Source of the DNA: Tolypothrix carrinoi HA7290-LM1
Lineage (GTDB): Bacteria > Cyanobacteriota > Cyanobacteriia > Cyanobacteriales > Nostocaceae
NCBI GenBank assembly: GCA_019358935.1
Contig: JAHHIK010000060.1
Location: 1 to 50,729, forward strand
DNA: 50,729 nucleotides
Reading direction: 5' to 3'
The notes beneath the pieces were generated by a model. It made no database searches and had not been told where the DNA came from. It saw only the letters and a list, made by a program, of their open reading frames with translations. Positions 6,784 through 30,560 of this stretch are shown piece by piece (position 1 is the stretch's first letter; each line of letters starts with the position of its first letter). Made by a program: the position numbers and the translations under genes.

Positions 6784-6808
6784 AAATCCTATCGGCTTAC
6801 CGTAGTTT
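6784..6808 (-). promoter_or_regulatory. Putative sulfur-regulon operator box AAACTACGGTAAGCCGATAGGATTT
   Basis: 17-bp core CTATCGGCTTACCGTAG is identical to the copy upstream of cysE (17424-17440). Confidence 0.75.
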
Positions 6809-7143
6809 ATATAAAAACGCAGAAAAAGTCTACTCTACCAATAGAAAGATATCTATGCAGTTGACTGCGATGTCGGGACGACAACGCTCCGCGAACGCCA
6901 CCTTCAAAGGAATTCATCGTATTGGAAAAAGTAAAAATAGCGATCGCTTGTTATCAGTTGCCTGATATCTCCGTATTGTATGTATAATTGGTTGCATATA
7001 TTTTCCAAAGAGAATATGTTGTGCGATCGCCTCATGTCTGCTTACCCAAAATATTCCAACATCGAAACATTTAAAATCATTTTTCTACCTTTCCCCTTTT
7101 GAAAAATCCCTTTTCCCCTCCTTTGGTAATAGTTATAATAAAA

Positions 7144-7437
7144 ATGATGAATCAACTTAATAATATGACTAATTCTTCTTTAACTACTTTCTTTTTGATA
7201 TTGGGAATAGTTTTCTTGACAATTTCTGTTATTGGACAATCAAAATTGTTTTTTGCGGAAATTAATCCAGGTTGTTTTGGTCGATTTTTAGCTTTAATTA
7301 TCGGTGTATTCAGCTTAATCTGTGCTGTTTTCATAGGAGTATTTCCCCTAGAAAGTGTTGATTTAGTCAAAAATTATTTAGCGCAGCAGCTTCAACAAAA
7401 TATAAGCTCGATTAACCAACTTTTACTTGGGTCATAA
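7144..7437 (+). CDS. Small two-TM hypothetical membrane protein (start uncertain: 7144 or 7165)
   Basis: Two hydrophobic helices around EINPGCFGR. Confidence 0.65.
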   Translation: MMNQLNNMTNSSLTTFFLILGIVFLTISVIGQSKLFFAEINPGCFGRFLALIIGVFSLICAVFIGVFPLESVDLVKNYLAQQLQQNISSINQLLLGS

Positions 7438-7439
7438 CA

Positions 7440-7657
7440 CAATACAGTTCAGTTAGTAGTGTTCAGTCATCGAAGATCCCCCCAACCCACGCCACTTTGC
7501 TCAAGTCGAGCCAGCCGCTTGCGGGGGTTCCCCCCGTTGTGCGGACTGGCGTGGGAAACCCTTCCTGTGCAAGTGGCTCCCCTTATCAAGGTTGGCTCTA
7601 GTTCCCTCCTTTTTAAGGAGGGTTAGGGAGGATCAAGTCTTAACACCAAGCGTATTG
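7440..7657. mobile_element. MITE (Nezha/IS4-like) with 10-bp target duplication and nested dispersed repeats
   Basis: Imperfect TIRs CAATACAGTTCAGTTA ... TAACACCAAGCGTATTG; flanks GGTCATAACA (7430-7439) and GGTCATAACC (7658-7667). Confidence 0.75.
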
Positions 7658-7754
7658 GGTCATAACCAAGCCAATGTGAAATAATAATATATTAATTGGG
7701 GTGCAGTTACCAAAACGCAACGCACCCCTTAACTGAAGACTTATATAATTAGTA

Positions 7755-8291
7755 TTAGTAATAAGCACCTATCAAGTTGTAAGTCAAAGCCGTTAATACA
7801 AACAAATTCACAAAAATGTAAATTAAATCACGCCGGCGAACAAAAGCCAAAAGGGAAATTATCACCCGAACTATGGGAGTAGCAATTAAAAGCAGCAGTC
7901 CAAGTTGAATTATCCCACGGCTGCTACCTGAAAAAACAGCTTCTACCACACCTGTAGGAGAGCGAAATTTAGATGGGGTTCCGCGAAAAAAGTGATATTC
8001 AGCAGGTTCAGCACCGTGGCGAATTAAATACAAAATCCCCCCCAGCAGAACTACAGCACTAGCAATGAGAACGCCATATTTGAGAAGATTGCTAAGTAGA
8101 TTTTCTAATTGCTGCTCACTTGATGTTTTCGTGATGCTATTACTATCAATATCACCAGTTATTTTGTTAGCGCGTTCTGTTAACTCTTGAATATCAGAAT
8201 CTGGTTCTGACTGCAAAGGTAGTGCAACTAGTTCAACTTTTGACTGTACCGATGATTTCCACTCCCAAGCCGACGAATTGAATTTATACAT
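7755..8291 (-). CDS. DUF1634-family membrane protein (TauE partner)
   Basis: LLKYGVLIASAVVLLGG and GLLLLIATPIVRV motifs; immediately downstream of a TauE gene. Confidence 0.85.
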   Translation of the reverse strand: MYKFNSSAWEWKSSVQSKVELVALPLQSEPDSDIQELTERANKITGDIDSNSITKTSSEQQLENLLSNLLKYGVLIASAVVLLGGILYLIRHGAEPAEYHFFRGTPSKFRSPTGVVEAVFSGSSRGIIQLGLLLLIATPIVRVIISLLAFVRRRDLIYIFVNLFVLTALTYNLIGAYY

Positions 8292-8292
8292 T

Positions 8293-9129: not shown

Positions 9130-9293
9130 ATTTTATTTTCCTCTGTTTTGAAATGTATATAACAAGACCGAGATAATTTTTTATGCTTTCTTTAAATTTA
9201 AATGGCAGGCGGGTGAAAGCAAAGTATTATTGGGCACAAAAAATGATTTTTTTGTCACTTTCTGCGCCAGCTGACGATTTTTATGGGCAATAA

Positions 9294-9947
9294 TCACAAA
9301 GAAAGTGAAATTTCCCCATTAAATAGGTTTAATAGAGTCAAGGTGCCACTATCTACTACTATAAAAGCACCTAACCCGATTAGCACAAAAGGCATAAACT
9401 TATTGCCGTAGCCAGTTAGAACAAGAGCGATCGCTTTGTTGTGGGTTAATTTATATGCTGCATAACACAACACTCCTACCAACAGAAAAAATACGCATAG
9501 AATTATCAGCAGACTTTCCCAAGTACTGCTAGCAAACAAAGGCAAATAGATACTAATGTTGTCAGTACCATTAGCAACCGTGACGGCTGCCACACTGTAA
9601 ACTTGCATTCTTGTTAACTTGGCAAGAAACGAGTTGTTATGCGCTGTTTCTCCCTCGTTTTCTTTTGATGCATCTTCAAAATTGAGCAAGCATTTGATAC
9701 CGATTAGTATTGGCAGTAAGCCAAATAGTCCAATCAAAGGACGCGGTACAATTAAACCGCCAAAGAAACCGGGAATACTGAGGATTATTAGCGTTGCAAA
9801 GCCTATATACTGACCTGCAACGATATGCCAACGACAAAACGTAGCATTCACTTGTGAAAAAAACAGCGTCAGGAGAACCATATCATCGATATTGGTGGCA
9901 CTGAAGGCTGTTATCCCTGTGAAGAGTGCAGTAACTAACTCGCTCAT
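9294..9947 (-). CDS. CadD-family (LysE superfamily) membrane transporter, paralog 1
   Basis: FSATNIDD, GQYIGF, ANGTDNISIYLPLF; start at MSELV chosen by analogy with paralogs. Confidence 0.88.
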   Translation of the reverse strand: MSELVTALFTGITAFSATNIDDMVLLTLFFSQVNATFCRWHIVAGQYIGFATLIILSIPGFFGGLIVPRPLIGLFGLLPILIGIKCLLNFEDASKENEGETAHNNSFLAKLTRMQVYSVAAVTVANGTDNISIYLPLFASSTWESLLIILCVFFLLVGVLCYAAYKLTHNKAIALVLTGYGNKFMPFVLIGLGAFIVVDSGTLTLLNLFNGEISLSL

Positions 9948-10037
9948 ATTAATTTTTGATGCGTAAATTTTGTGGATCGTCAGCGCCGGCTTTCCCAGAC
10001 GGATGCGTTTTCTGTGGAAAATCAAAAGCTGGAAATT

Positions 10038-10694
10038 TTACATTCCCAAACCAGGCACAAGTTGGTACGTTCCACTTTTAACTAGGATGGAGAGTCCCAA
10101 GTAGATTAATACAAACGGAAAGACTTTCCGACCGTAGCGAGCTACAACCGGAGCTGCCAGACGATTACGAGTCATGTGGTAAGACAGAAAGCACCACAGC
10201 CCAATAGTCAAATAGCAAACACACACAATTAGACCCAAACTAGGGAGATTGCTACTGGCAAACAACGGTACGTAAATTCCTATGTTGTTTGCTCCATTTG
10301 CAATGGTGACAGCGGAAACGCGGTAAGTTTGGCGATCGCGTATAGTTGCCCATAGTGATTGATTGCGACGCTGAGGTTCATCATCAGAGTTGAAAACTGA
10401 CACAGTTTGTGATCCCTCTTCTTCTCGACTCATTAAATTACTGATACCAATCGCGATCGGAAGGAAACCTAACAATCCAATCCAAGCATCTGGAACAATT
10501 AAACCCCCGAAGAAACCAGGAAGACTAGCAAAAACTAATGCAGTGAATCCCAGAAATTCACCGATAACAATATGCTTGGGACGAAAGGTACGATTGACTT
10601 TTCCGAAAAAGGCAGTCAAGTATAAATTGTCGTCAAAGGTGGTTGCAAAAGCCGCAGAAATCCCAATAAATAAAGTACTAATTAGCCAAGTCAT
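10038..10694 (-). CDS. CadD-family membrane transporter, paralog 2 (divergent motifs)
   Basis: FATTFDD, GEFLGF, ANGANNIGIYVPLF. Confidence 0.88.
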   Translation of the reverse strand: MTWLISTLFIGISAAFATTFDDNLYLTAFFGKVNRTFRPKHIVIGEFLGFTALVFASLPGFFGGLIVPDAWIGLLGFLPIAIGISNLMSREEEGSQTVSVFNSDDEPQRRNQSLWATIRDRQTYRVSAVTIANGANNIGIYVPLFASSNLPSLGLIVCVCYLTIGLWCFLSYHMTRNRLAAPVVARYGRKVFPFVLIYLGLSILVKSGTYQLVPGLGM

Positions 10695-10724
10695 GATCGT
10701 TACAATGATTAAATGCTGTTTTTC

Positions 10725-12451: not shown

Positions 12452-13213
12452 CTATAACTGTGTTTCTTCCGGAAGTAATGAGGTTTCCTCTACTGGTGGT
12501 TCATTTACATCGCTTGCTTTAGTCAAATGCGGTTTGATAATCAGATTTACCCCAATTGCCCAGGCTAATGCAACCATCCATCCTGCAAGAATATCACTAG
12601 GAAAGTGAACGCCAAGGTAAAGTCGCGTCCAGCCGATCGCAACGACGAATAAACTACCGAAAATCAAAACTAACCAACGCGAGTAGCTATTCCAAGCCAA
12701 AACTACCAAAACTGCTATCAGCGTCATACTTGTCATTGCATGACCGCTAGGAAAGGCATAACTGAGTTCATGAGCGCTTGACTCCCACAAGTCAGGACGC
12801 ACTCTATGCATGAATTCCTTAGCTGTGCGGTTGATGAACGCGCTTCCCAATGTGGTGATGAGTACATAAGCTAGCGATCGCCAACGCTTCAACAACAATA
12901 ACACGAGTGCGATCGTACTAAAAATCGGTATTGCAGTCCAAAATGACCCAAACTTAGTTAGTGACAGTGCAAAAATATCTAACTGAGGCTGTGCTGTTTT
13001 GTGAATTGCTATCAATATCGGCACATCCCACGGAAACCCACCTTCATGTTGCCATACTTCTAAGGCAAGTAATCCAAAGATTTGCAAAGGTAAATAAACC
13101 CCGATAAATAAAATTAGTAATTCACGCCAGCGAGCAATCAACAGTTTTTTGATAAAGCTCAAAGGCGATTTTTGTTGTTGGCGATCGCTTTTGACGTTTT
13201 CTAATTTTTCCAT
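12452..13213 (-). CDS. PAP2-family membrane phosphatase
   Basis: KxxxxRxRP, FPSGH, TRLYLGVHFPSD catalytic motifs. Confidence 0.92.
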   Translation of the reverse strand: MEKLENVKSDRQQQKSPLSFIKKLLIARWRELLILFIGVYLPLQIFGLLALEVWQHEGGFPWDVPILIAIHKTAQPQLDIFALSLTKFGSFWTAIPIFSTIALVLLLLKRWRSLAYVLITTLGSAFINRTAKEFMHRVRPDLWESSAHELSYAFPSGHAMTSMTLIAVLVVLAWNSYSRWLVLIFGSLFVVAIGWTRLYLGVHFPSDILAGWMVALAWAIGVNLIIKPHLTKASDVNEPPVEETSLLPEETQL

Positions 13214-13483: not shown

Positions 13484-13508
13484 AAAATACGGTAAGTCAC
13501 TCGGATTT
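13484..13508 (+). promoter_or_regulatory. Putative sulfur-regulon operator box AAAATACGGTAAGTCACTCGGATTT
   Basis: Matches TACGGTAA-n-nTnGGATTT pattern; lies between divergent PAP2 and TauE genes. Confidence 0.6.
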
Positions 13509-13773
13509 TAGTATTTTACATGTAAAATGCTAGAAAAAGAAGGAAGCAGTTAAGTTTAGCAGGAGAAGCGTCCCATCGGCAGTTACGACCTGCCCAAAGA
13601 AGGGAAAAGTGCGATCGCCCTGAAAAAACTCACTCTAACGGCTTTTTTGGTCAGGATCTTAAATCCTCAAAGCCTTCGCTAAATAACCTTTGTGTTTCTC
13701 ATCCAATTAGAAACACGAAAATTTGTGCTGTCTGCATTACCACAGTTGAAAACCCCCCATTTTGGATAGGAGT

Positions 13774-14571
13774 ATGAACTATTTATTACTACCACTGTTA
13801 AGCTTCTTTGTTGGCATCATCGTTGGTTTGACAGGAATTGGCGGAGCATCTCTCATCACCCCAATGTTGATTTTTATATTCCAAGTTCCGCCTTCGGTGG
13901 CTGTTAGTTCTGATGTCGTGGCTGCCACACTAATGAAGATTGTTGGCAGTGTCAAGCACTATCAACAGAAAACCCTTGACATGCAAGTTGTCCAATGGCT
14001 GGCATTCGGAAGTGTCCCAGGATCGCTCTTTGGGGTGGGGATTTTGCACCTAATTAAGCGTAATGGTGGATCTAGTCTGGATTATATTCTGCTGCGCTTG
14101 GTTGGGGTGATGATTCTGTTAGTTACAGTCTTAGCACTTGTACAATTGCTACTTTTTACTTTTTTCCCCAAGTTTACGCTACCCGAACTGCCAAAGTTTG
14201 ACTTAAAAACTAATTTGGGTCGTTTGATGACGATGACAATAGGAGCAGTTTTAGGCTGTTTGGTCGGTTTAAGTAGTGTTTCTTCCGGTTCAATGTTTGC
14301 ACTAGTATTGATTGGCTTTTTCCGCCTTGATGCTCGTAAATTGGTAGGTACAGACATTTCACAAGCCGCAATTTTATTATTTTTTACCTCCCTCGGACAC
14401 CTCAGCTTGGGAACAGTTAATTGGAGTCTGGTAGTACCGATTTGGATAGGCTCAGTTCCAGGGGTATTACTAGGTGCTAAAATCTGTCAAATCGCGCCTC
14501 AACGCCCACTGCGGTTTATCATTTATACAATATTGATGATGGTTAGTTGGAAGTTAGTTTATCAAGCGTAA
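13774..14571 (+). CDS. Sulfite exporter TauE/SafE family protein (copy 2)
   Basis: VGLTGIGGASLITP, AVSSD, GLSSVSSGS, LVGTD; AGGAG RBS before ATG 13774. Confidence 0.9.
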   Translation: MNYLLLPLLSFFVGIIVGLTGIGGASLITPMLIFIFQVPPSVAVSSDVVAATLMKIVGSVKHYQQKTLDMQVVQWLAFGSVPGSLFGVGILHLIKRNGGSSLDYILLRLVGVMILLVTVLALVQLLLFTFFPKFTLPELPKFDLKTNLGRLMTMTIGAVLGCLVGLSSVSSGSMFALVLIGFFRLDARKLVGTDISQAAILLFFTSLGHLSLGTVNWSLVVPIWIGSVPGVLLGAKICQIAPQRPLRFIIYTILMMVSWKLVYQA

Positions 14572-14572
14572 T

Positions 14573-14918: not shown

Positions 14919-15581
14919 TTAAGCTTTTACCCACGGTAATAAATTGAATGTACCTCTTTCATACATGATGAAAAGTCCCAAGCAAATTAAGACATAAGGA
15001 ACAAGAATGTTACCGTAGCGAGTTAAAATATCAGCAATAGTAGGTTGAAGGGTTAATAGGTAAGCAATAAAGCACCAAACCCCTACCATGACAAAAAATA
15101 CACTCAAAATTACTCCCAGACTGGCAAAACTATGACCGGCGAATAAGGGAATATAAATACTGATATTATCACCACCATTGGCAATCGTTACTGCGGCTAC
15201 TTTATATGTATTCGGATGCAAAAGACTCAATATAAAAGATATTATGGGGTTTCTGTGTGGGGACTGCTTAAAATCACTGGTTACTGTCTGAACTTCTGTT
15301 GTTTCTTCTTCCGGACTTAGCAGTTGCTTAAGACCAATTACTATTGGTAGTATTCCGAGTAATCCAATTAATTCTCGCCGCACTACCAAGCCACCGAAAA
15401 ATCCTGGTAAGCTAGCGATGATGATGGCTGTAAAACCAAGGTACTGACCAAAAAAGATATGTCGGCGACGAAAGTTAGCATTTATCTGTGAAAAAAATAG
15501 CAGCAGGATTATGATGTCATCGATATTAGTAAAGAAGAAGGCGATTATTCCTTCTATGAAAGCTGTCCCAAGCTTATTCAT
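14919..15581 (-). CDS. CadD-family membrane transporter, paralog 3
   Basis: FFFTNIDD, GQYLGF, ANGGDNISIYIPLF. Confidence 0.9.
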   Translation of the reverse strand: MNKLGTAFIEGIIAFFFTNIDDIIILLLFFSQINANFRRRHIFFGQYLGFTAIIIASLPGFFGGLVVRRELIGLLGILPIVIGLKQLLSPEEETTEVQTVTSDFKQSPHRNPIISFILSLLHPNTYKVAAVTIANGGDNISIYIPLFAGHSFASLGVILSVFFVMVGVWCFIAYLLTLQPTIADILTRYGNILVPYVLICLGLFIMYERGTFNLLPWVKA

Positions 15582-15666
15582 GCTGGATTGTCGGAAATTA
15601 TTATTTATATAGTAAATTAAACGAACCGCAGAGGCACAGAGAACACAGAGAAAGAGTCAGAGAAGA

Positions 15667-16359
15667 ATGAATGAGTTAGTTGCTGCTATTGGTGCTGGGG
15701 TTACGGCGTTTACTGCTACTAATATTGATGATATTGTGATTTTGTTATTGTTTTTTTCACAGGTAAGTGCTAGTTTTCGCCGTCGTCATATTGTTGTTGG
15801 TCAGTATTTAGGTTTTACGGTGCTGGTAATTTTTAGTCTTCCGGGTTTCTTTGGGGGGTTGATTTTATCGCCACACTGGATTGGATTGCTAGGTTTGATG
15901 CCAATGGCAATCGGTATTAGTAGTTTGGTTAATTCTGAAGATGAATCGACTCAAGAGAAGGCGGAAATAGAAGAATTTGATGATTTAAATGTTACTAGTT
16001 TTTTTGCTCCCCAAACTTATAGTGTAGCGGCTGTGACTATTGCTAATGGTAGTGACAATATCAGTGTTTATGTGCCTTTGTTTGCTAACAGCGGTTTTGT
16101 CAGCTTCTTAATAATTATTATTATATTTGTTGCACTTTTAGCTGTTTGGTGCTATGTGGCAGAGAAATTAACTCATCAGAGGACAATAGCTGAACTGATA
16201 ACTCGCTATGGTAGTTATCTTGTGCCTTTTGTGCTGATGGGTTTAGGTGCTTTTATTGTGTTGAAAAGTGAGGCGTTAAGTCTAACTAAATTAATTCTTA
16301 GTTGTATATGTTTGACTGTTTTGGTGAAAAAGGACGAAGATTCTGTTGACAAGGTATAG
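15667..16359 (+). CDS. CadD-family membrane transporter, paralog 4
   Basis: FTATNIDD, GQYLGF, ANGSDNISVYVPLF. Confidence 0.9.
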   Translation: MNELVAAIGAGVTAFTATNIDDIVILLLFFSQVSASFRRRHIVVGQYLGFTVLVIFSLPGFFGGLILSPHWIGLLGLMPMAIGISSLVNSEDESTQEKAEIEEFDDLNVTSFFAPQTYSVAAVTIANGSDNISVYVPLFANSGFVSFLIIIIIFVALLAVWCYVAEKLTHQRTIAELITRYGSYLVPFVLMGLGAFIVLKSEALSLTKLILSCICLTVLVKKDEDSVDKV

Positions 16360-16593: not shown

Positions 16594-16828
16594 TCATATG
16601 TGGCTAAAGTACGACAAGCTGACACAGAGCGCGTCTTTGCTCATCGTATCAGGTATTGTTAGAATAAGATGGTAGCCCTGTGCCACCATAAAATAAAGCA
16701 ATTCCGGTGTTACAGGAATAAGCTTGACGACAAGAAAGCGCTTTGCGCTTTGGATTGGGGAATCTTTTTCAACTGAACAAGCACGAGTCCGTCCGATTAA
16801 CTCGCTCGTATATGAGCGCAATCCACAT
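16594..16828 (-). pseudogene. cysK: Decayed cysteine synthase A remnant
   Basis: Across frames: MWIA.., ELIGRT, LVQLKKIPQS, LVVKL, S[C]NTGIAL, QGYHLILTIPDTMS; the SVKDR PLP-lysine segment and C-terminal two thirds are absent; directly downstream of rrf2. Confidence 0.8.
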
Positions 16829-16846: not shown

Positions 16847-17314
16847 CTAAATGTAATACATCGGATTCTGCTGTGTCCTTTGATCTCTTTCTTGACACAT
16901 GTCTTGCAGTGTATAGCTTCTCAAAACTTCAACCGCAGCATTGTTAGCTTGTAGCCAAATGTCTTGCACCAGATTCTTTTCTAAAGTGGGAGGTTCTGAG
17001 TTTTCTTTCGGTTTGCGATCGCCTTCCACCAAAGTGACAATTTCCAGCAAGGTAATTTGCCAAGGTTCACGAACTAAAAGAAAGCCTCCCCTAGAACCGC
17101 GTTGACTCTTAACCACACCCGCACGTCGCAAGCTGGTAAGAATTTGCTCTAAATAGCGTTCTGGAATCGGTTGCTTGGCAACAATCTCGCTCATCGTCAG
17201 AGGAACTTTTTTATCGTGATGGCTTGCCAGTTCTAAAAGTGCTAGCAAAGCATATTCGACTTTAGAAGACAGATCCAAAAGAGCGTAATTTGGGCTATTC
17301 AAGTCTCTACTCAA
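16847..17314 (-). CDS. Rrf2-family transcriptional regulator (CymR-like, no Fe-S Cys triad)
   Basis: LSSKVEYALLALLEL, IPERYLEQIL, SQRGSRGGF, MYYI C-terminus; single Cys; TTG start uncertain. Confidence 0.93.
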   Translation of the reverse strand: MSRDLNSPNYALLDLSSKVEYALLALLELASHHDKKVPLTMSEIVAKQPIPERYLEQILTSLRRAGVVKSQRGSRGGFLLVREPWQITLLEIVTLVEGDRKPKENSEPPTLEKNLVQDIWLQANNAAVEVLRSYTLQDMCQERDQRTQQNPMYYI

Positions 17315-17315
17315 T

Positions 17316-17339
17316 ATACTACGGTTTTTCGATAGATTT
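17316..17339 (+). promoter_or_regulatory. Putative operator box ATACTACGGTTTTTCGATAGATTT abutting the rrf2 start
   Basis: CTACGGT-N5-GATAGATTT. Confidence 0.7.
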
Positions 17340-17419
17340 GAGGTATATAGCAGCGATCTTAATTTTTCTCAAACTAACGGATGTGATAGCATCCCAATTA
17401 TCACTAACTGAAATACCTC

Positions 17420-17444
17420 TAATCTATCGGCTTACCGTAGATTA
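17420..17444 (-). promoter_or_regulatory. Quasi-palindromic operator box TAATCTATCGGCTTACCGTAGATTA upstream of cysE
   Basis: TAATCTA...TAGATTA arms; core identical to 6789-6805. Confidence 0.75.
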
Positions 17445-17522
17445 TCCATCATAATTCCTGTCTTGGGAATTATTTAAGTTTTTGATTTTATCTTTCTCAG
17501 CAACAAAGAACCAAACTTCCTT

Positions 17523-18248
17523 ATGCTACTAACTGATTTGCGAACGATTTCTGAGCGCGATCCAGCTGCCCGTAACTGGCTGGAAGTGTTGTTTTGCTAT
17601 CCCGGACTTCAAGCTATAGTGCTTCATCGACTCGCACATCGGCTGTATAAAACGCAGATGCCCTTTATACCTCGGTTTATATCCCATCTCAGTAGGTTTT
17701 TTACGGGAATTGAAATTCACCCAGGAGCAACGATTGGCAAGGGTGTTTTTATTGACCACGGTATGGGAGTAGTGATTGGCGAAACAGCGATTATCGGCGA
17801 CAATGCCCTAATTTATCAAGGTGCCACCCTCGGCGGTACCGGGAAACAAAGCGGCAAGCGCCATCCCACTTTGGGTAATAATGTGGTTGTCGGCGCAGGC
17901 GCAAAGGTATTAGGCAACATTCAAATTGGCGATAATGTCCGCATCGGCGCCGGTTCGGTGGTGCTGCGCGATGTGCCCAGCAACACGACTGTAGTCGGAA
18001 TTCCCGGACGTGTAACTCGTCAAGACAACACAAGTGTTAATGCTTTGGCTCATGATAAAGTCCGGGATGTGGAAGCTGAGGTAATACGCGCTTTATTTGA
18101 ACGAGTCAAGACTCTAGAGAAACAAGTTGTCCAGATGGAAACTGAGTTACATATGTCCGTCGTCCAAGTAGATAACGGACAAACCGATAACAGTAAGTGC
18201 AATACAGATTCGGTAATCGAAGACTTTCTCGATGGTGCGGGAATTTAG
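17523..18248 (+). CDS. cysE: Serine O-acetyltransferase
   Basis: [45 protein letters not shown]-terminus (CysK-binding Ile). Confidence 0.97.
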
Positions 18249-19380: not shown

Positions 19381-19412
19381 AGGAAATCCTTCCAGAAATT
19401 GATATATTTTTA

Positions 19413-19436
19413 ATACTACGGTAAATGTATCGAATA
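19413..19436 (+). promoter_or_regulatory. Putative operator box ATACTACGGTAAATGTATCGAATA between divergent cysA and cysR
   Basis: CTACGGTAAAT-n-TATCGA, nearly identical to 25823-25840. Confidence 0.72.
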
Positions 19437-19454
19437 ATAGGATTATTTGCAATA

Positions 19455-20042
19455 ATGTCTTTATACTCTGCCCCGCCAAATTCTTTAAGTAAGAATACTG
19501 TTCAATCTTTTTCTCGTCGATCCTTGTTGCCACAACAGACTCATACTCTGTGGAAAATTGAAACAGGCGTTGTACGAACATTTACTTATCTCGAAGACGG
19601 TACGAGCGTCACTTTGGGAGTGTGGGGATCGGGAGATATTGTTGGGAAAGCTTTGTCAAAAGTCGAACCGTATCAGATGGAGTGTCTCACGAAAGTGCAA
19701 GCGACAATCTTTGATTTGCAAGGATGGGATCAAATTGCAGACGTATTGCTGGCACACATTCAACAAGCTGAAGAATTGATGATTGTTCGTGGCTATAAAA
19801 CAGTTGATATCATGCTTATCAAGCTGTTGACATGGTTATCTAAAAGGTTTGGTCGTGAAGTTGAACAAGGACGTTTGATAGATATGCGTCTGACTCATGA
19901 AGACATTGCCGAACTATTGGGTTCAACTCGCGTGACAATCACTCGTATTCTCAGGCAATTAGAACAAGAAGGCTTTATTCACCGTCTCAGTCTGCATCGA
20001 ATTGTGCTGCGAGAAGAAGAAATTTGGCACTATGAGATTTAA
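19455..20042 (+). CDS. cysR: Crp/Fnr-family regulator, CysR-like
   Basis: [38 protein letters not shown] tail; adjacent to sulfate ABC genes as with cyanobacterial cysR. Confidence 0.75.
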
Positions 20043-20902: not shown

Positions 20903-23053
20903 ATGAAATACGTTAACGTTTTACAATACAGTGAAGAAGATTGTGGTGCTGCTTGTCTAGCTTCTATTGCCAAACATTATGGACGTACTTTTACCCTAAA
21001 TCATATCCGTGAAGCCGTAGGCACTGGACAATTAGGCACAACTATGTTAGGGCTGAAACGGGGAGCAGAAACACTTGGGTTTAATGCTCGTGCTGTGAAA
21101 ACTTCAAAAGAATTATTAAATAAAATTAATCAAGCACCCCTACCAGCAATTATTCACTGGAAAGGGAATCACTGGGTTATTTTATATGGCAAGAAAGGTA
21201 AAAAATGTGTAGTTGCCGATCCAGCGGTAGGTGTTCGTTATCTTTCATTTGAAGAGGTAGCAGAAAGTTGGACAGATTACTTGATGTTGTTACTGGAACC
21301 CGATCCAGTAAAGTTTTTTGCCAACGACAATGACGAAATTGGTGGGTTTTGGCGTTTCTTTAAGCGCGTTTGGATTTATCACGGTATTTTAGCGCAAGCT
21401 TTACCCCTCAACTTAATCTTGGGATTGCTATCTTTAGCTTCCCCTTTTTTGCTGCAAATCCTCACAGATGATGTGCTGGTTCGAGGTGATACAAAGTTAC
21501 TTACTACTGTAGCAATTTCTGTAGTAGTGATGAATTTCATTTCTCGCAGTCTTTCGTTTGTGCAGTCTAATTTAATTGCTCACTTTGCCCAACGTCTGCA
21601 ATTAGGATTAGTTCTGGAATTTGCACGGCAAATTCTGCGATTACCTCTTTCTTACTACGAAGCGCGTCGCAGTGGTGAAATCGTTAGTCGTTTGCGAGAT
21701 ATTAACCAAATTAATCAATTAGTCGCTCAAGTTGTAGTTAGTTTGCCCAGCCAATTTTTTCTTGCGCTGGTTTCTTTTGGTTTCATGGTTTTCTATAGCT
21801 GGAAACTAACATTAGTGGCTGTATTCATCGCTATAGTCATGAGTTTATCTACAATAGTCTTCCAGCCAACTTTGCAACAAAAAACCCGTGAACTTTTAGT
21901 TCAAGAAGCTGAAACCCAAGGTGTTTTAGTAGAAACTTTTAAAGGCGCACTTACTCTCAAAACTACCACATCGGGACTACAATTTTGGGATGAATTCCAA
22001 GTTCGATTTGGTCGTCTTGCTAATGTTACATACCGGACAATTCAGATTGGAATTATTAATAATACATTTTCTGGCTTGATTTCTGGTATTGGTAGCGTTA
22101 TTTTGCTTTGGGTCGGCGGCAATTTGGTAATTAACCCAGCAGAAAATTTGAGTATAGGGCAGCTATTTGCATTTAACTCGATGAATGGCAATTTTGTCGC
22201 CTTAATTAGTACTATAATCAGTTTTGTCGATGAATTTACTCGTGCAAAAACAGCTACCCAACGCTTAACAGAAGTTATAGATGCAACCCCAGAAAATAAA
22301 GATGATGGCAAAAAGCCTTTTGCAAATATTCCTGGAGATGTTGACATTATTTGTACAAAGGTTAACTTTCATTATGCTGGTAGGTTGGATTTAATAGAGG
22401 ACTTTTCTTTAACTATTCCCGGTGGTAAAGTTGTTGCGATCATCGGGAAATCTGGTTGTGGTAAAAGCACTTTAGCTAAACTGATCGCTGGGTTATATCC
22501 GGTGGAATCTGGGAATATTCGGATGGGACTTTATAATCAACAAGACCTTTCTCTTGATTGTCTCAGGCAGCAGGTGGTTCTTGTTCCCCAAGAGCCTCAC
22601 TTTTGGAGCCGTTCTATTGTGGAGAACTTTCGCTTAGGAGCACCATTTGTAACCTTTGAGCAGATTGTCAGAGCTTGTAAAGTTGCTGAAGCTGATGAAT
22701 TTATCAGTAAATTGCCTGAGAAATATCAAACTATTTTAGGGGAGTTTGGTGCAAATATTTCTGGCGGGCAACGTCAAAGATTGGCAATAGCAAGAGCGAT
22801 TGTTACAGAACCACCAATTCTTATTTTAGATGAATCGACTGGTGGATTAGATCCAGTGAGTGAAGCGCAAGTTTTAGATCAATTGTTTAAGCATCGTCGG
22901 GGTAAAACCACTATTTTAATTACTCACCGTCCCAAGGTAGTTAATCGGGCTGATTGGATTGTATTGTTAGATCAAGGCAAGTTGAAAATTCAAGGTTCTC
23001 TAGAAGAGTTACTTTCTCAACCAGGAGACCATATAAACTTTTTAATTCCTTAA
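20903..23053 (+). CDS. C39 peptidase-containing ABC exporter (PCAT)
   Basis: QYSEEDCGAAC, HWKGNHWV, ADPA; TM domain; GKSGCGKS, ISGGQRQR, LDEST. Confidence 0.95.
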   Translation: MKYVNVLQYSEEDCGAACLASIAKHYGRTFTLNHIREAVGTGQLGTTMLGLKRGAETLGFNARAVKTSKELLNKINQAPLPAIIHWKGNHWVILYGKKGKKCVVADPAVGVRYLSFEEVAESWTDYLMLLLEPDPVKFFANDNDEIGGFWRFFKRVWIYHGILAQALPLNLILGLLSLASPFLLQILTDDVLVRGDTKLLTTVAISVVVMNFISRSLSFVQSNLIAHFAQRLQLGLVLEFARQILRLPLSYYEARRSGEIVSRLRDINQINQLVAQVVVSLPSQFFLALVSFGFMVFYSWKLTLVAVFIAIVMSLSTIVFQPTLQQKTRELLVQEAETQGVLVETFKGALTLKTTTSGLQFWDEFQVRFGRLANVTYRTIQIGIINNTFSGLISGIGSVILLWVGGNLVINPAENLSIGQLFAFNSMNGNFVALISTIISFVDEFTRAKTATQRLTEVIDATPENKDDGKKPFANIPGDVDIICTKVNFHYAGRLDLIEDFSLTIPGGKVVAIIGKSGCGKSTLAKLIAGLYPVESGNIRMGLYNQQDLSLDCLRQQVVLVPQEPHFWSRSIVENFRLGAPFVTFEQIVRACKVAEADEFISKLPEKYQTILGEFGANISGGQRQRLAIARAIVTEPPILILDESTGGLDPVSEAQVLDQLFKHRRGKTTILITHRPKVVNRADWIVLLDQGKLKIQGSLEELLSQPGDHINFLIP

Positions 23054-23079
23054 TTATTTGTTATTTATTAAGATTGACA

Positions 23080-24480
23080 ATGTTTCACACCCATGAGAAA
23101 AAATTACTTCCCGGAACTGATGGTCAGGAGTTTCTGCCTCCTATTAGTCCTTGGACATCATTAACCGGAATATTTCTAGTTGGGACTGTTTGTAGTGCGA
23201 TCGCTCTTTCTTCTTGGGTGAAATACAATGTCATAGTCAAAGCTGCTGGCACTGTGCGTCCTACAGGAGATGTCCGGGTAGTGCAAGCGGATATGGAAGG
23301 AAGCGTTAAAAATATCTTTGTTAAAGAAAATCAGAATGTGAAAAAAGGTGATGCGATCGCTATCTTGGATGACGAGCAACTACGCATCAAAAAAAGCCAA
23401 CTGCAAGGCAATATCCAACAAGGTATGTTGCAACTAATTCAAATTAATGCTCAAATCAGAACTTTAGATACTCAGATTAAGGCTGAATCTACAGTGATAG
23501 AGCGCTCAGTTTCTGCTGCAACAGCGGATTTGGAACGCAACCAACGCGAATATCAAGAGCGAACAAGTACAACTAATAACGAATTGCTAGCAGCTCAAGC
23601 AGACTTACAAAAAGCTAATTTAGATTTGCAAAAAGCCAAAGCAGATTTAGAATTTGCGGCTGTCGATCGCGATCGCTACGAGGAGCTTTCACGAAATGGT
23701 GCAATTGGTAAGCGTGAATTTGAGCAGAAAAAACTAATTGTTGTGCAAACAAAATCAATACTCGAAACACAAAAAAAATCTATTGAAATCGCCAAAGCGA
23801 AAGTTGCATCAGCCAAAGTCGCTCTTAATCCTAGTAAGGCAACAGTAGCGATCGCGCTCGGAAAAATTGCTCAAGAAAAAGCCAGAGGTGAATCAACTAT
23901 CGCTACTTTGAATAAAGAAAAACAAGCTTTAATTCAGCGGCAAGCCGAAATGCAAAACCAAATAAATCAATCTAACAAAGAACTGCAACAACTTAAAACT
24001 TTATTCAAAAATAGCACGATTCGGGCAACGAGTGACGGCATTATCCTTAAATTAAATTTACGCAACTCTGGTCAAGTAGTACAGAAGAGCGAATCTATTG
24101 CCGAAATTGTTCCTGATAATGCTCCTCTATTAATTAAAGCAGCTATACCTACTACCGAAATTAAAAAGGTCGCAATTGGTCAAAAAGTGCAATTGCGAGT
24201 TGATGCTTGCCCTTATCCTGATTACGGTACTCTTAAAGGTGCTGTCAACGCTATTTCTCCAGATGCGATCGCACCTCAAACTAATAATACAGGTGCAGCA
24301 ACACCTACTGCCGCTAGCTATTTTGAAGTGACAATTAAACCGGAAAGCCGTTCATTTGGAAATAGCTCAAGCCAGTGTCTAATCCAAGCAGGAATGGATG
24401 CCAAAGCTGACATTATTTCAAAAGAAGAAACTGCACTGCAATTTATCCTCAGAAAAACACGGTTAACTACAGATTTGTGA
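23080..24480 (+). CDS. HlyD-family membrane fusion protein
   Basis: Single TM, lipoyl-like halves (VKENQNVKKGD; IRATSDG), long coiled coil, CPYPDYGTLKG. Confidence 0.93.
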   Translation: MFHTHEKKLLPGTDGQEFLPPISPWTSLTGIFLVGTVCSAIALSSWVKYNVIVKAAGTVRPTGDVRVVQADMEGSVKNIFVKENQNVKKGDAIAILDDEQLRIKKSQLQGNIQQGMLQLIQINAQIRTLDTQIKAESTVIERSVSAATADLERNQREYQERTSTTNNELLAAQADLQKANLDLQKAKADLEFAAVDRDRYEELSRNGAIGKREFEQKKLIVVQTKSILETQKKSIEIAKAKVASAKVALNPSKATVAIALGKIAQEKARGESTIATLNKEKQALIQRQAEMQNQINQSNKELQQLKTLFKNSTIRATSDGIILKLNLRNSGQVVQKSESIAEIVPDNAPLLIKAAIPTTEIKKVAIGQKVQLRVDACPYPDYGTLKGAVNAISPDAIAPQTNNTGAATPTAASYFEVTIKPESRSFGNSSSQCLIQAGMDAKADIISKEETALQFILRKTRLTTDL

Positions 24481-24803: not shown

Positions 24804-25148
24804 TCAGCAATACCAACCATCTCCATCAGCATTAGGCTTGCCTTTAATTGTCAAATTTAGAGATTCTAAATAAGTCAGACCACTGCTAATCTGTGATGGG
24901 GTTCCTTGAAGTTCTAGGTCAAAACATCCATATCCATCTGTATTTTCTCCTAACATTGCTTTAGTAATATTCACAACTAAACCATGAGCAGAAATTAACC
25001 GCGAAATCACAGGTTCTTGCTGATAGCATTGGGGAATATGTAAGCGCAAACGAACTTTAGTCAGATTATTTTTTTGCAAAACTGGGGAAATCAAAGATGG
25101 TCTGGTTAAAAGTGAAACTTTATGTTTATTAAATTTATTCATTTTCAA
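24804..25148 (-). CDS. Stand-alone NIL-domain protein
   Basis: RLRLHIP..YQQEPVISRLIS.HGLVVNIT.A.L....G.FDLELQG; ends DGDGWYC. Confidence 0.85.
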   Translation of the reverse strand: MKMNKFNKHKVSLLTRPSLISPVLQKNNLTKVRLRLHIPQCYQQEPVISRLISAHGLVVNITKAMLGENTDGYGCFDLELQGTPSQISSGLTYLESLNLTIKGKPNADGDGWYC

Positions 25149-25781
25149 TTAATTGCTATCAGGAATTGAAACTAACCAAAGCGGTAACTTTAATTTTTCT
25201 AAGTAATTTAGACTAGCGCGAAGTTGCTGCGGTCTACCCCACAAATCTAAGTCAAACCAACCATCATCTTGCATGTTGGGATTTAGCATAGCACTGGTGA
25301 TGTTGACTGTGAGCATATAATGAGAAACTAATTCGGAAATTATCGGTTTATGGTAATAGTTTTTCAAGATGCACAGTTGCAAACGCACTCGATTTGTTTG
25401 AGCGATCGCATTATATATTGGTTCTTGTTTCAACAAAGTTGATGCAGATTCTCTTAGGGTTAAATTGCTTTTTTCGTTAGGGAAAGCCTGAGTGTTTCCT
25501 GATTTAATGTGATTTTTGATCGCTAATTGCAGCAAATCCACACCCAATCCTTGTAAGTAGGATAGCGAATAAGCCAATTCTGGGGGATTTCCGGAAAGTT
25601 CTAGGTCAAACCAGCCATCATCCTTACTGTCTGATGTCAGCGATGCTGCGGTAATATTGACGGTTAAATTATAGCGAGATACTAGCCGGGAAATTATCGG
25701 TTGTCTATTATACCGCTGGGGTATGCGAATCCGGCTGTGGACTGGAGCAGGTTTTTCAAAGTTGCACAAAAGACATTGCAC
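25149..25781 (-). CDS. Tandem two-NIL-domain protein (start uncertain)
   Basis: Two copies of PIISxLVSxYxLTVNIT.A....DDGWFDL.L.G. Confidence 0.85.
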   Translation of the reverse strand: MQCLLCNFEKPAPVHSRIRIPQRYNRQPIISRLVSRYNLTVNITAASLTSDSKDDGWFDLELSGNPPELAYSLSYLQGLGVDLLQLAIKNHIKSGNTQAFPNEKSNLTLRESASTLLKQEPIYNAIAQTNRVRLQLCILKNYYHKPIISELVSHYMLTVNITSAMLNPNMQDDGWFDLDLWGRPQQLRASLNYLEKLKLPLWLVSIPDSN

Positions 25782-26847: not shown

Positions 26848-27117
26848 TTACCAAATACCTGTTTCGCTGTTGTTATCCCAGATTTGCAAATCCAAGTCAT
26901 GGAGATAGCCTAAAGCTCGGTCAATTTGTCCAATTGTGCCTTGTAAATCTAAGTCAAACCAACCATCACCAACAGCATTGGCGCCGAGAACAGCAGCAGT
27001 GATATTTACAGTCAAACCGTAATCAGACACCAAGCGAGAAATCACAGGTTGAGAGTGATAGTCTTTAGGAATTCTTAAGCGAATCCGTTTATGGGCGATC
27101 GCAATGTCATTAGCCAT
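26848..27117 (-). CDS. Stand-alone NIL-domain protein at the end of the sbpA-cysT-cysW run
   Basis: RIRLRIP.DYHSQPVISRLVSDYGLTVNITAAVLG...GDGWFDLDLQG. Confidence 0.88.
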   Translation of the reverse strand: MANDIAIAHKRIRLRIPKDYHSQPVISRLVSDYGLTVNITAAVLGANAVGDGWFDLDLQGTIGQIDRALGYLHDLDLQIWDNNSETGIW

Positions 27118-27119
27118 AA

Positions 27120-27445
27120 TGGATAGTGGTTGGTGGATAGTGGTGAGGCAGCGCGGTCTTGGGGAGGCAGTGCGTTGGGGAGGCAGTGCGTTGGACGGGT
27201 TTCCCGGCAGACGCGCACCTGCCGTCGGGTTTCCCGACTTGAAGCATCTGCCGTGGTTTCCCCCATGAGCGACTGCCGAACCCGAAGGGATGGTGGATGG
27301 TGGATAGTGGATAGTGGTTGGTGGTTAGTAATTGGTCGATAGTGGTTGGTAGTTGGTGGTTAGTCGATAAGAGTACTTTTTGACAACGCTCCAACTATCA
27401 ACTATCAACGCTCCAACTATCAACTATCAACGCTCCCACTATCAA
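27120..27445. repeat. STRR array with a triple-nested dispersed repeat (27145-27289)
   Basis: Three GAGGCAG(C/T)GCG left arms followed by three CTGCCG right arms. Confidence 0.88.
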
Positions 27446-27453
27446 CAAACATC

Positions 27454-28341
27454 CTATTCAACATCTTTAATGCGGGTTTTCCGTTCAAGAATCTCCTTCA
27501 ACACCAAGGTGACAACTGCTAGCAACGCTAACAATACAGCAGCAGAGTAGGCAGCTTCGGTTTCATACTGCTTGTAAGCGTCTTCGACAAATAAAGGTAA
27601 ACTTTGAGTTTTATCGGCAATGTTTCCCGAAACTACGGATACAGCTCCGAATTCACCCATTGCTCTGGCATTTGTCAAAATTACACCATATAATAAGCCC
27701 CAGCGGATACTTGGCAAAGTGACGCGCCAAAATATCTGCCAATCCTCTGCACCCAATGTTCTGGCTGCTTCTTCTTGGTCTTTGCCGAATTCTTCTAAAA
27801 CCGGAATCACTTCACGGGCAACAAAGGGCATGGTAACAAATGCTGTAGCCAACACCATACCCGGAAAGGCAAAGATAACCTTGATATCATGAGCCTGGAG
27901 CCAACCGCCAAACCATCCATTTCGCCCGTAGAGCAGCACAATCATCAAACCTGCGACCACGGGGGAGATAGAAAAAGGTAGGTCAATAATGCTGAGAATG
28001 AAAGCGCGACCGGGGAATTTGTGACGGGTGATCGCCCAAGCTGCACATAAACCAAATACTGTATTTAAAGGTACAGTAATTACAGCTAGTATCAGTGTCA
28101 ACCAAGCTGCATGAAGAAAGGCAGGACGGGTTAAGTTGGAGAGAAATGGACCAAACCCTTTTTTGAAAGCTTGGAAAAAGACGTTAGCAGCAGGGATGTA
28201 GAGAACTAAAGCTAAATAGGCGATCGCTATCCCAATTAAAATAATTGGCATCCAATCCCTCGATTTAACAGGTCTTTGCGGCTTTGGATCTGCTGCACCT
28301 GAATGAATCCGAGGTGGAAAAGAGGCTTCATTTTGTGTCAT
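27454..28341 (-). CDS. cysW: Sulfate ABC transporter permease CysW
   Basis: [47 protein letters not shown]. Confidence 0.96.
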
Positions 28342-29212
28342 ATCTTCTTGCCCAAGCTTGTAAAAGATTAATTCCCACTAACAACACCAAGGAAATCAGC
28401 AGTAACACAGTACCAATTACAGTTGCCCCAGAATAGTCATACTGCTCTAATCGCTGGAAAATTAGTACTGGTGCAATCAAATCTTTAAACGGAGTATTGG
28501 AAGCGATAATCACCGTTGAGCCATACTCCCCAACTGCACGAGAGAAACCCAAGGCAATACCTGTCAAAATGGTCGGAAATAAAGGCGGAAAAATCACCTT
28601 CCAGAAAGTCTCCCATTGAGTTGCACCCAAACTCCAGGCAGCTTCTTCAATTTCGCGTTCCATTTCCTGAAGTACAGGTTGCACTGTCCGCACGACAAAG
28701 GGCAGCGAGATATACGTCATTGCCACTGCTACACCCAGACGGGTGAAAGATACTTTGATACCTAAGGGTGCTAGTAAGGAGCCAAGCCAGCCATTATCGC
28801 TGTAAACTGTTGCCAGAGTTAACCCCGCAACCGCTGACGGCAGCGCAAAGGGTAAATCTACTGAGGCTTCAACAATCCGTTTCAAGGGAAATTTATAACG
28901 AACCAAAACCCAAGCAATGAGAGTACCAAAGACCCCATTAAACAGAGATGCAATTACTGACGTGGTAAAAGTGACATCATAAGTTGCCAGTGCGATCGGA
29001 CTAGTCGCGATTTGCCAAAACTTAGCCGGGGGTTCGGTACCGGCTTTCAGGAACATCGCGGCTATCGGGACGAACAACATTACCGTGAGGTATCCCACAG
29101 TAATTCGCCACGTCCAAGGAATTCTAGACAAATTACTTAAGAATTTCTTCCACACCGGCGGTTCTGGGGGAATGATTTGCCGAGGAGAAGAACGAGGTGA
29201 GGAGACAGCCAT
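28328..29212 (-). CDS. cysT: Sulfate ABC transporter permease CysT
   Basis: [44 protein letters not shown]. Confidence 0.96.
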
Positions 29213-29307
29213 AAAGTAGCTTCAAATTGCAAATTTAATTGACGTGTTTGGGCTAAAGGGGAAACGTGGGTACGCAAAAAATCACTCTTGACTCTTTCTT
29301 AAGTTTT

Positions 29308-29335
29308 GTACAGACGCAATTAGTAGCGTCTGTAC
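29308..29335. terminator. Stem-loop between sbpA and cysT (attenuating/stabilising hairpin or REP)
   Basis: GTACAGACGC-AATTAGTA-GCGTCTGTAC perfect 10-bp stem. Confidence 0.55.
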
Positions 29336-29349
29336 TGACTTTTGATTAA

Positions 29350-30510
29350 TTACCGTTTCCTTTGGGCTTGAATATTGTCAAAAAGAGCACCATCTGCAAA
29401 GAACTTCTTATCGGCTGCATTCCAACCGCCCAACTCGTCAATTGTACCTAGAGTTTTCACCTTGGTATACTTGTCGGCGATTTCTTTGAGTTCTTTATTT
29501 TGTGCTACCGCTTCATCTAGGGGTCGGAATCCCAATTTGGCAAACTCTTGCTGTGCTTCTGGAGTATAGAGGTATTTGACAAAACCTTCTGCTACTTGCC
29601 TTGTGCCGTGCTTATCGACGTTTTTATCTACAACTGCGATCGGATTGTCGATAGAGATATTTACCTCAGGAACGACATAATTCACCTTCTCGCCTTTTTG
29701 TTGTGCCAAGACAATTTCGTTTTCGTAGTTAATTAAGGCATCTCCCTGACCTTGCTTGGCAAATGTATCAGTTGCTTCACGGGCATCCTTAGTCAAGATT
29801 GGCACATTGCTATATACTTTGGTCACAAACTGAGTCGCTTTAGCCTCATCTCCCCCAGTTTTAATCACTGAATTCCACAGTGCCAAGAAATTCCACTTGG
29901 CAATACCCGATGTTTTGGGGTCAGCAGTAATCAGTTTTACATCGTTTTTCGCTAAATCTTCCCAAGTCTTGATGCCTTTGGGGTTGCCCTCTCGTGTAAC
30001 TAATGCGGCAACAGTTTTAGAGACAATGCCATTGTTGGGGAATTCTTTTTCCCATCCAGGCTGAATTAGTCCAGCCTTCTCAATTTTTTGAGTGTCTCCT
30101 GCTAATGCCAAGTGGACGACATCCGCTTCTAAACCGTCGATAACAGCGCGAGTTTGCGAACCAGATCCGCCATAGCTTTGTTTGAAGGTGACGTTTTGGT
30201 TATGGTCTTTTTTCCACTGTTCGACAAATTTAGGAATAATTGCTTCGTGAACCGCTTTGGTGACTGCAAAGGAAACGAGGGTTAGTTCAACGTCTTTGTT
30301 GTTAGCTGCAACAGTACTAGCACCAGAATTTCCTGCATTGCTATTGGCATTATCGGCATTTCCACCAGAACAGGAGGCGATCGCTACACTCAATATCGCT
30401 CCCACCAAAAACATCGATACAAAGCCTTTGAAGGAACGCAACCTGAGTCTGCGGCTCAAATGCTCAATGGTCAGTCCCGATTGCTTAACTCGGCGTTGCC
30501 ATAAACTCAT
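29350..30510 (-). CDS. sbpA: Periplasmic sulfate-binding lipoprotein
   Basis: Lipobox IASC, QSYGGSGSQTRAVIDGLEADVV, DPKTSG, NYENE. Confidence 0.95.
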   Translation of the reverse strand: MSLWQRRVKQSGLTIEHLSRRLRLRSFKGFVSMFLVGAILSVAIASCSGGNADNANSNAGNSGASTVAANNKDVELTLVSFAVTKAVHEAIIPKFVEQWKKDHNQNVTFKQSYGGSGSQTRAVIDGLEADVVHLALAGDTQKIEKAGLIQPGWEKEFPNNGIVSKTVAALVTREGNPKGIKTWEDLAKNDVKLITADPKTSGIAKWNFLALWNSVIKTGGDEAKATQFVTKVYSNVPILTKDAREATDTFAKQGQGDALINYENEIVLAQQKGEKVNYVVPEVNISIDNPIAVVDKNVDKHGTRQVAEGFVKYLYTPEAQQEFAKLGFRPLDEAVAQNKELKEIADKYTKVKTLGTIDELGGWNAADKKFFADGALFDNIQAQRKR

Positions 30511-30535
30511 TTCTTATACTCCTATCAATCTACTC

Positions 30536-30560
30536 TTTATCAATCTAGATACCGTGCAAT
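30536..30560 (-). promoter_or_regulatory. Degenerate operator box ATTGCACGGTATCTAGATTGATAAA upstream of sbpA
   Basis: ACGGTA-N4-GATTGA fits the spacing of the other copies with several mismatches. Confidence 0.5.

Follow-up and report, generated by a model that had tools for sequence, protein, structure and literature searches.

The closest described counterpart of the system reported here is the CymR-CysK pair of Bacillus subtilis and Staphylococcus aureus (NF047409; PDB 2y75, 3t8r), in which a regulator of the Rrf2 family is coupled to the cysteine synthase CysK. In S. aureus, the CymR tail ends in YMFYI and inserts into the CysK active site with a dissociation constant (KD) of 25 nM (10.1101/2024.09.19.614015), and the logic connecting CymR, CysK and O-acetylserine is described in PMC13689551, PMC3828012 and PMC2940859. 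The subject of this work is a DNA box that recurs among the sulfur genes of a cyanobacterium, on a 50,729-nucleotide stretch of Tolypothrix carrinoi HA7290-LM1 (contig JAHHIK010000060.1, positions 1–50,729; the whole stretch is referred to as the window). The box is part of a 34-bp inverted repeat, and one of the genes that it precedes encodes an Rrf2 protein ending in -MYYI. Taking the whole analysis together, the cluster-less, -MYYI-tailed Rrf2 subfamily is probably a repressor that acts on this conserved palindrome at sulfur-acquisition promoters and is coupled to CysK, working like CymR of the Firmicutes.

With the CymR-CysK pair this system shares a cluster-less Rrf2 protein, an aromatic-isoleucine C-terminal tail and linkage to cysK, and the predicted targets are alike: sulfur uptake, cysteine synthesis and sulfonate use (PMC3828012, PMC13689551). 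It differs in that the tailed cyanobacterial Rrf2 belongs to another phylum, scores 100 bits against a CymR cut-off of 195, occurs in up to several paralogs per genome and likely controls a CRP-type activator. The operator is a 34-bp palindrome, and the rrf2 gene is likely autoregulated, whereas cymR expression in B. cereus is described as constitutive (PMC3519770). The mechanism is borrowed from CymR, and is thus a variant of a known one. RegPrecise holds 18 transcription-factor regulogs for cyanobacteria (PMC3840689). A literature search, judged mostly by titles and the starts of abstracts and with most subscription papers outside its scope, gave no account of the operator or of a cyanobacterial CymR. 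RegPrecise presumably includes an Rrf2/IscR-labelled cyanobacterial regulog, and a prior computational description there is possible.

In fresh water sulfate is frequently a limiting nutrient, and the way in which cyanobacteria perceive its scarcity is an open question, to which the present result offers a regulator family, an operator and a list of targets. CysR of Synechococcus elongatus PCC 7942, a CRP-family protein, has overlapping target classes (cysA, sbpA, sulfate permease and the srp genes of plasmid pANL; PMC11420160, PMC12016511). A 2024 paper states that the CysR regulon remains undefined (PMC11420160), and a 2021 paper that much is unknown about how the known parts of the sulfur response interact (PMC8049743). 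CysR is described as needed for the response, whereas here the box stands before cysR itself (26 of 30 promoters), and its occurrence follows that of Rrf2 rather than CysR; the tailed Rrf2 is a candidate sulfur-starvation switch acting above this known activator, with CysR recast as a likely second tier. Two other Rrf2 types are to be set apart. IscR, including the Firmicute-type 4cic (which we take to be an IscR-type protein), has the same fold and autoregulates by a palindrome, and 4cic also ends in MYYI, but the local Rrf2 lacks the three-cysteine cluster site and its predicted targets are sulfur-acquisition genes. The universal non-tailed cyanobacterial Rrf2 (presumably Slr0846-like) belongs to the same Pfam family and occurs in the source genome (on contig C45) and in each of the 10 tail-less genomes to which the family search was applied; it shares about 34% identity with the tailed form, has a different recognition helix and no MYYI tail, and is accompanied by no box when it is the sole Rrf2.

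The initial annotation of this DNA had described a short box at seven intergenic positions. The recurrence is real: with up to three mismatches, the 21-letter consensus matches eight times in the window, against 2.21 ± 1.33 in 100 shuffles (none of which reached eight), and six of the eight are the listed strong copies, with 0–2 mismatches. Each of the seven copies is a portion of a shared 34-bp inverted repeat, with the consensus AAWCTACGGTWWNTCGA-TCGANWWACCGTAGWTT, the hyphen marking the dyad between positions 17 and 18. To define it, 121 distinct sites from relatives were gathered with a 25-bp matrix and then examined beyond the training window. The symmetry score is at its maximum at 17.5 (4.02; next best 1.48), and the alternative of a main dyad at position 12 or 13 of the short box was discarded; outside the 25-bp training window, positions 28–33 are conserved (G28 in 106 of the 121 sites). 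In 57 of the 121, the opposite strand has a second match of at least 8 bits at an offset of exactly 9 bp; the other offsets tested gave none. The operator consists of two overlapping, opposed 25-bp units, offset by 9 bp, that may provide two binding registers or accommodate two dimers.

Scored with a symmetric matrix, the seven best sites of the window are exactly the earlier seven (18.9–34.2 bits; the next reaches 8.4), although window scores are partly circular because that matrix includes congeners' sites. A second, independent matrix was built to avoid circularity, from 42 sites in the rrf2-B and cysE promoters of relatives only (the rrf2 of the window being paralog B), and used with a threshold of 8 bits; its background is 52 of 5515 upstream regions (0.9%). 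The sites (palindromic, with no strand assigned) and the sbpA promoter are:

6775–6808: 34-bp operator, 2 bp upstream of the membrane-protein gene; 20.3 bits (18.9 with the independent matrix)
13484–13517: 34-bp operator between the divergent PAP2 and TauE genes; 24.0 bits
17316–17349: 34-bp operator abutting the rrf2 start; 27.4 bits; same position in 10 of 10 aligned promoters; a training-set site
17410–17443: 34-bp operator 79 bp upstream of cysE; 28.2 bits; conserved in the alignment; a training-set site
19413–19446: 34-bp operator, occupying 34 of the 74 bp between cysA and cysR; 26.5 bits
25820–25853: 34-bp operator 39 bp upstream of the NIL pair; 34.2 bits, the best of the window, with 0 mismatches to the symmetric pattern
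30527–30560: 34-bp operator between the sbpA -10 element and ribosome-binding site; 18.9 bits (8.8 with the independent matrix); same place in relatives
30597–30630: weak second site upstream of the sbpA -35 element; 8.4 bits
30563–30591, minus strand: predicted sbpA promoter (TTGCAT, 17 bp, TAATAT), read from the sequence; similar elements seen by eye in relatives

Two copies had been said to share an identical 17-mer 10.6 kb apart, and they do so (at 6789 and 17424, 10,635 bp apart, and nowhere else in the genome); since their flanks are unrelated, the pair is not a duplication. The consensus does not detect the weak copy reported at 30536–30560, which makes up the final 25 bp of the full site at 30527–30560; the sbpA genes of many relatives likewise have weak second matches about 110–140 bp upstream. 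That all copies are intergenic holds with corrected start codons (cysA at 19380, cysR at 19455) but not with the longest open reading frame (ORF) calls, within one of which the 19413 site falls. The description of the regulon as local stands only in part: seven sites lie in the window (contig C60 of a 7.96-Mb genome), but the genome as a whole carries 16 of at least 18 bits. Fifteen of these lie outside long ORFs, the sole exception being 19413, in its over-long call. Nor are the hits randomly distributed: nine genome sites reach 25 bits, against none for each of ten column-shuffled matrices, and 15 reach 20 bits, against 0–5. Beyond the window, the genes with a site ahead of them encode a second sulfate-binding protein, a phosphonate-type binding protein, a TPR protein (two sites), a small phosphatase-fold protein (its gene opposite a chromate transporter), an aldo-keto reductase and a DUF1830 protein, and a 14.4-bit site lies 76 bp upstream of sulfite reductase; no isc or suf genes are among the annotated neighbours of the top sites in the source genome. 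The TPR gene (415 aa, role unknown) is preceded by two of the strongest sites in the genome (G000:C41:61413 and 61487), and a homolog of it adjoins rrf2-B in one relative (G015, L045). There is no clear target for a 20-bit site in a plasmid-like region (C82:13945) or a 26-bit site between convergent genes (C21:34599); a small RNA or small ORF between the convergent genes is possible for one of them.

Conservation was compared across 73 genomes with sbpA. With the independent matrix, the sbpA box reaches 8 bits in 56 of the 62 genomes with a -MYYI-tailed Rrf2 (20 of 20 with a close ortholog of the local paralog B, 36 of 42 with another tailed Rrf2) and in none of the 11 without one, where the highest score is 1.2 bits. 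Here, "without" means no match at E 1e-22; searched with the Pfam family, 10 of the 11 have one over-cut-off Rrf2 each, which is non-tailed in the nine sequences read. Among sbpA paralog matches, ten without a locus and 19 others were mostly left out of the comparison, and four were added. The box is likewise conserved in other orthologous promoters, as the initial annotation would predict: by the same matrix it is found at cysR (26 of 30), the DUF7980-like membrane gene (21 of 23) and TauE (19 of 25). Of the six TauE misses, four (G028, G027, G020, G018), plus G035, are placed immediately after the membrane gene and its box-bearing promoter. At cysK promoters a site within 400 bp was found in 0 of 30, many cysK genes lying downstream of rrf2. 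Whole-genome pattern counts give 395 matches against 24 for a reversed control in 59 tailed genomes, and 14 against 10 in 19 tail-less ones, counts that are partly circular in that the pattern comes from the 121 sites of these relatives.

The position of the sites points to a mode of action. In most genomes the sbpA site lies downstream of the -10 element and just ahead of the Shine-Dalgarno sequence, with about 11–25 bp separating its end from the start codon; at cysR the site begins 4 bp after a TG-TATATT -10-like element (19400–19408); and the rrf2 and membrane-gene sites stop 2 bp short of the start codon. Judged from sequence, all four are positions that would suit a repressor, and the 17316 site likely serves rrf2 autoregulation. 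A sigma-70 scan of 17250–17560 gave one match, against 1.0 expected. Among sequencing runs compared with the DNA, none contained half of its words, and the RNA runs, present as contigs, had shares of at most 0.13. Between the rrf2 and cysE operators lies a second conserved element (17379–17394, plus strand), a short inverted repeat with TGTG and a TAnnnT hexamer, possibly an extended -10 for cysE.

The Rrf2 protein of the window is a clear family member (PF02082, 118.8 bits, cut-off 30; TIGR00738, 110.5 bits, cut-off 73.3), and its PDB matches are 4cic (best, 80.9 bits) and 2y75. It has one cysteine (C140, at a position common to many but not all homologs) and none in the linker, and so no Fe-S cluster cysteines; in the alignment, the three Cys plus His that ligate the cluster of IscR (PMC11672702) are not present. 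Of four Rrf2 genes in the source genome, three (the local B, A on C3 and C on C104) end in MYYI and have a common R-Y-L-E-Q recognition-helix core and wing Arg in the alignment, while the fourth (C45) is without a tail. Across 140 loci, all 134 Rrf2 ORFs read (some genomes repeated) carry the MYYI tail. A cysK gene comes after rrf2 at 59 of 80 paralog-A loci, at 7 of 23 of B type (intact cysK) and at 14 of 20 others. Palindrome, position, conservation, tail and co-occurrence with the tailed Rrf2 are all observed, and an Rrf2 protein is very likely the binder of the operator. That the box belongs to a Cys-poor, CymR-like Rrf2 governing a cyanobacterial sulfur regulon, as first suggested, is supported by its conservation, the non-random sites and its dissociation from CysR and LysR; the restriction to the local protein should probably be widened to the tailed subfamily, because the sbpA box occurs in 36 of the 42 non-B genomes and the three tailed paralogs have the same helix core.

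In the proposed mechanism, the tailed Rrf2 would bind the site and block sulfate uptake (sbpA-cysTW, cysA), cysE, its own gene and the activator gene cysR, and, in other species, organosulfur scavenging genes. When cysteine is plentiful, the C-terminal isoleucine of Rrf2 would sit in the CysK active site and repression would be stabilised; under sulfur shortage, O-acetylserine would push the tail out and so lift repression of the regulon, after which CysR would drive a second tier. A model of Rrf2 residues 100–143 with the CysK dimer of a relative and PLP scores 0.79 (best control 0.00) and places residues 137–143 in the CysK active site, with at least 94% agreement of contacts between runs and a partner pLDDT of at least 69, at a mark reached by 51 of 78 solved pairs and 2 of 108 mismatched pairs; because similar CysK-peptide complexes have been solved, the model speaks for likeness and not for binding.

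Several points weigh against this repressor model. Both rrf2-linked cysK copies of the source genome are relics (window 16597–16717; G000:C3:138318–138530); the intact cysK lies at C1:132491, without a box, and neither it nor sat and cysH has a site of at least 3 bits, so that this regulon seems to be concentrated on uptake and scavenging, together with cysE. The complex model may owe its score to resemblance to the solved CysK-peptide structures, and its CysK comes from another genus. Nor is the tail unique to CymR, as 4cic also ends in MYYI, and the best NCBIfam equivalog of the local Rrf2, CymR NF047409, is matched below its cut-off (IscR scores 70 bits), so that, lacking the IscR ligands as well, the protein is filed under neither. 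The conserved paralog-A promoter site (L276–L355) is a variant that fits one 25-bp unit only and scores poorly on the 34-bp matrix. Six tailed genomes stay below 8 bits at sbpA: G027, G034 and G039 reach 6.5, 5.6 and 3.1 bits at the usual position, and G043, G154 and G176 have nothing at the sbpA tested. Other parts of the sulfur clusters of G043 and G154 do contain strong sites; two loci of G176, which has rrf2-cysK, contain none. Conversely, a single perfect site lies before a porin-tauD/tauCAB cluster for taurine use in G172, a draft of 280 contigs in which CysR but no tailed Rrf2 was found, and sites of 16–20 bits in G058 and G188 have no clear target. The 11 tail-less genomes represent few independent losses, belonging to five families with seven in one, and their sbpA genes may be paralogs or operon-internal.

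The rival explanations differ in which protein binds the box and in what signal it carries. The CRP-family activator CysR, to which control of the sulfate permease and the srp genes of S. elongatus is ascribed, with a regulon called undefined (PMC11420160), could itself be the binder; box-bearing genes overlap the CysR iModulon classes, and the perfect site of G172 fits. We consider this quite unlikely. G158 (one contig), G049 and G108 (both drafts) have sbpA boxes of 13.4, 21.5 and 18.1 bits, with sites at sbpA, cysA and rrf2-cysK in G158, yet a 21-row profile found no CysR-like protein in them, only general CRP paralogs of at most 126 bits (CysR-like rows score 201–232, but were in the profile). 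The single-chromosome G168, by contrast, has a CysR of the window's clade (by tree), a LysR ortholog and one, non-tailed, Rrf2, and no site of at least 6 bits in its 17-kb sulfur cluster. A site downstream of the -10, as at sbpA and cysR, is also a poor place for an activator; cysR is likely a target of the box and not its binder. The nearby LysR (34362–35315), whose gene lies 4 kb from sbpA, is contradicted by an opposite pattern in 5 of 5 genomes tested: its ortholog occurs in box-less G168 (68%) and was not found in box-bearing G158, G102, G049 and G138 (at most 38%), and the LysR gene has no site of at least 2 bits in its vicinity. A dispersed repeat or chance match could draw on the 20-bit site in a plasmid-like region and the site between convergent genes, but the unrelated 17-mer flanks and the empty column-shuffled controls at 25 bits argue otherwise, and this group of explanations, LysR included, is largely refuted and extremely improbable. 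Across genomes, then, the box dissociates from both regulators that had been named as alternatives, in line with binding by Rrf2.

If the tailed Rrf2 is the binder, its signal might still be redox or persulfide sensed through the cysteine, or the tail might only inhibit CysK. The single C140 is retained, S. aureus CymR also senses oxidation by a single Cys (PMC13689551), and the rrf2-linked cysK copies are relics here. We nevertheless regard this as unlikely: the tail is invariant in the ORFs read and the cysteine is not, rrf2-cysK adjacency is common, and the source genome has an intact cysK elsewhere. Slightly less likely even than binding by CysR is a B-specific regulon, in which paralog B alone binds the window sites, and A and C have variants of their own. 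Sites are indeed much more numerous in genomes with B (238 in 14 genomes, against 157 in the other 45), sbpA-near sites without B more often have C at position 6 (35%, against under 12%), and the paralog-A promoter site is a distinct variant; but the same sbpA box is found in the non-B genomes, including the congener G004, where B was not found, and A, B and C have the same helix core and wing Arg. We therefore retain the tailed subfamily, rather than one paralog, as the probable repressor.

The operator extends to other cyanobacteria. The pANL srp genes of S. elongatus are sulfur-regulated (PMC8049743), and pANL of PCC 7942 carries three sites of 15–21 bits (13.7–21.9 with the independent matrix), all intergenic and in its sulfur region; 200 column shuffles gave a mean of 0.015 matches at 12 bits. 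One precedes its own Rrf2, which ends in -MFYI, and the others precede a carbonic anhydrase-catalase-chromate transporter-cysK run and an acyl-CoA dehydrogenase/ABC run. The pANL cysK-cysE-srpI operon has a weak site only (2.8–5.9 bits), the independent matrix also giving a 10-bit match inside cysK. In G102, which has an sbpA-cysT-NIL-cysR cluster, sites lie in the stretch separating cysA from sbpA, ahead of a second sbp and ahead of a rhodanese gene; in G025 and G040, they precede ssuD, ssuA, ssuB-like, porin and rhodanese genes, as well as genes with no obvious sulfur link (a GST-like gene, htrA). Chromate transporter genes are among the other box targets. On balance, we lean towards the view that many freshwater and terrestrial cyanobacteria, S. 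elongatus included, sense sulfur by a CymR-like Rrf2-CysK master repressor above CysR, with a two-register operator of 34 bp that could be bridged by a CysK dimer, and that the system was lost in some lineages, which must regulate sulfur otherwise. A 60-kb organosulfur scavenging island with ten intergenic sites of at least 17 bits was also seen in G025 (C1:4.79–4.85 Mb, L419–L421).

Named relatives of one Rrf2 paralog, at 93–95% identity, are Hassallia, Tolypothrix and kin, from which the source is judged to be a heterocystous filamentous cyanobacterium. Positions 6–31 kb of the window form a sulfur island containing TauE transporters, rrf2, cysE, cysA, a CRP-family cysR-like gene, NIL-domain genes and sbpA-cysT-cysW:

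6312–6773, minus strand: membrane-protein gene, DUF7980-like, a likely regulon member (Atlas feature DUF7980 at 0.98, a lead only)
12452–13213, minus strand: PAP2-family gene (Pfam PF01569), regulation uncertain
13774–14571, plus strand: TauE/SafE-family transporter gene (Pfam PF01925), likely target of the 13484 site
16597–16717, minus strand: cysK (cysteine synthase) relic behind rrf2 (tblastn match of 43% across 35 aa, with a further 8 aa in a different frame)
16847–17314, minus strand: rrf2 (paralog B; Pfam PF02082, 118.8 bits), single Cys C140, C-terminal -NPMYYI
17523–18248, plus strand: cysE, serine O-acetyltransferase (TIGR01172, 255 bits, above cut-off)
18370–19380, minus strand: cysA, sulfate ABC ATPase (Pfam ABC_tran and TOBE), start corrected to 19380 from the sequence and homolog starts
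19455–20042, plus strand: cysR-like CRP-family regulator gene (Pfam HTH_Crp_2; tree), presumed to be CysR from gene context and recall
24804–25781, minus strand: two NIL-domain genes (Pfam PF09383)
26848–30510, minus strand: sbpA-cysT-cysW-NIL sulfate uptake operon (TIGR00971 above cut-off; Pfam BPD_transp_1 and NIL)

The box assigns several orphan genes (DUF7980, NIL proteins, a TauE) provisionally to sulfur metabolism. A Pfam/NCBIfam profile search of the membrane protein gave no match; the gene is present in the sulfur clusters even of tail-less genomes (G168, G172), and its product is likely sulfur-related. Of the divergent pair at 13484, TauE is favoured, PAP2 being unsupported as a target (box in 0 of 6 PAP2 homologs in other loci). 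Three stand-alone NIL-domain genes (four domains; 24804–25781 and 26848–27117) lie under the box, and NIL genes also occur within sulfate operons of distant cyanobacteria; the proteins may be feedback subunits of the sulfate transporter. Five CadD-type "cadmium resistance transporter" paralogs and three TauE paralogs are grouped in the island (9294–10694, 14919–16359, 36045–36740), a clustering that suggests a sulfur-related rather than cadmium-related role for the former. A C39-peptidase ABC exporter and HlyD pair without a box interrupts the island at 20903–24480, and methionine-salvage-like genes (ARD, HAD, aldolase II), also without a box, adjoin it at 32171–34092. In pANL (L275:9300–9845) and G102 (L405:1573–2115), a look-alike of a salvage gene (by eye) is divergent from rrf2, with a common box.

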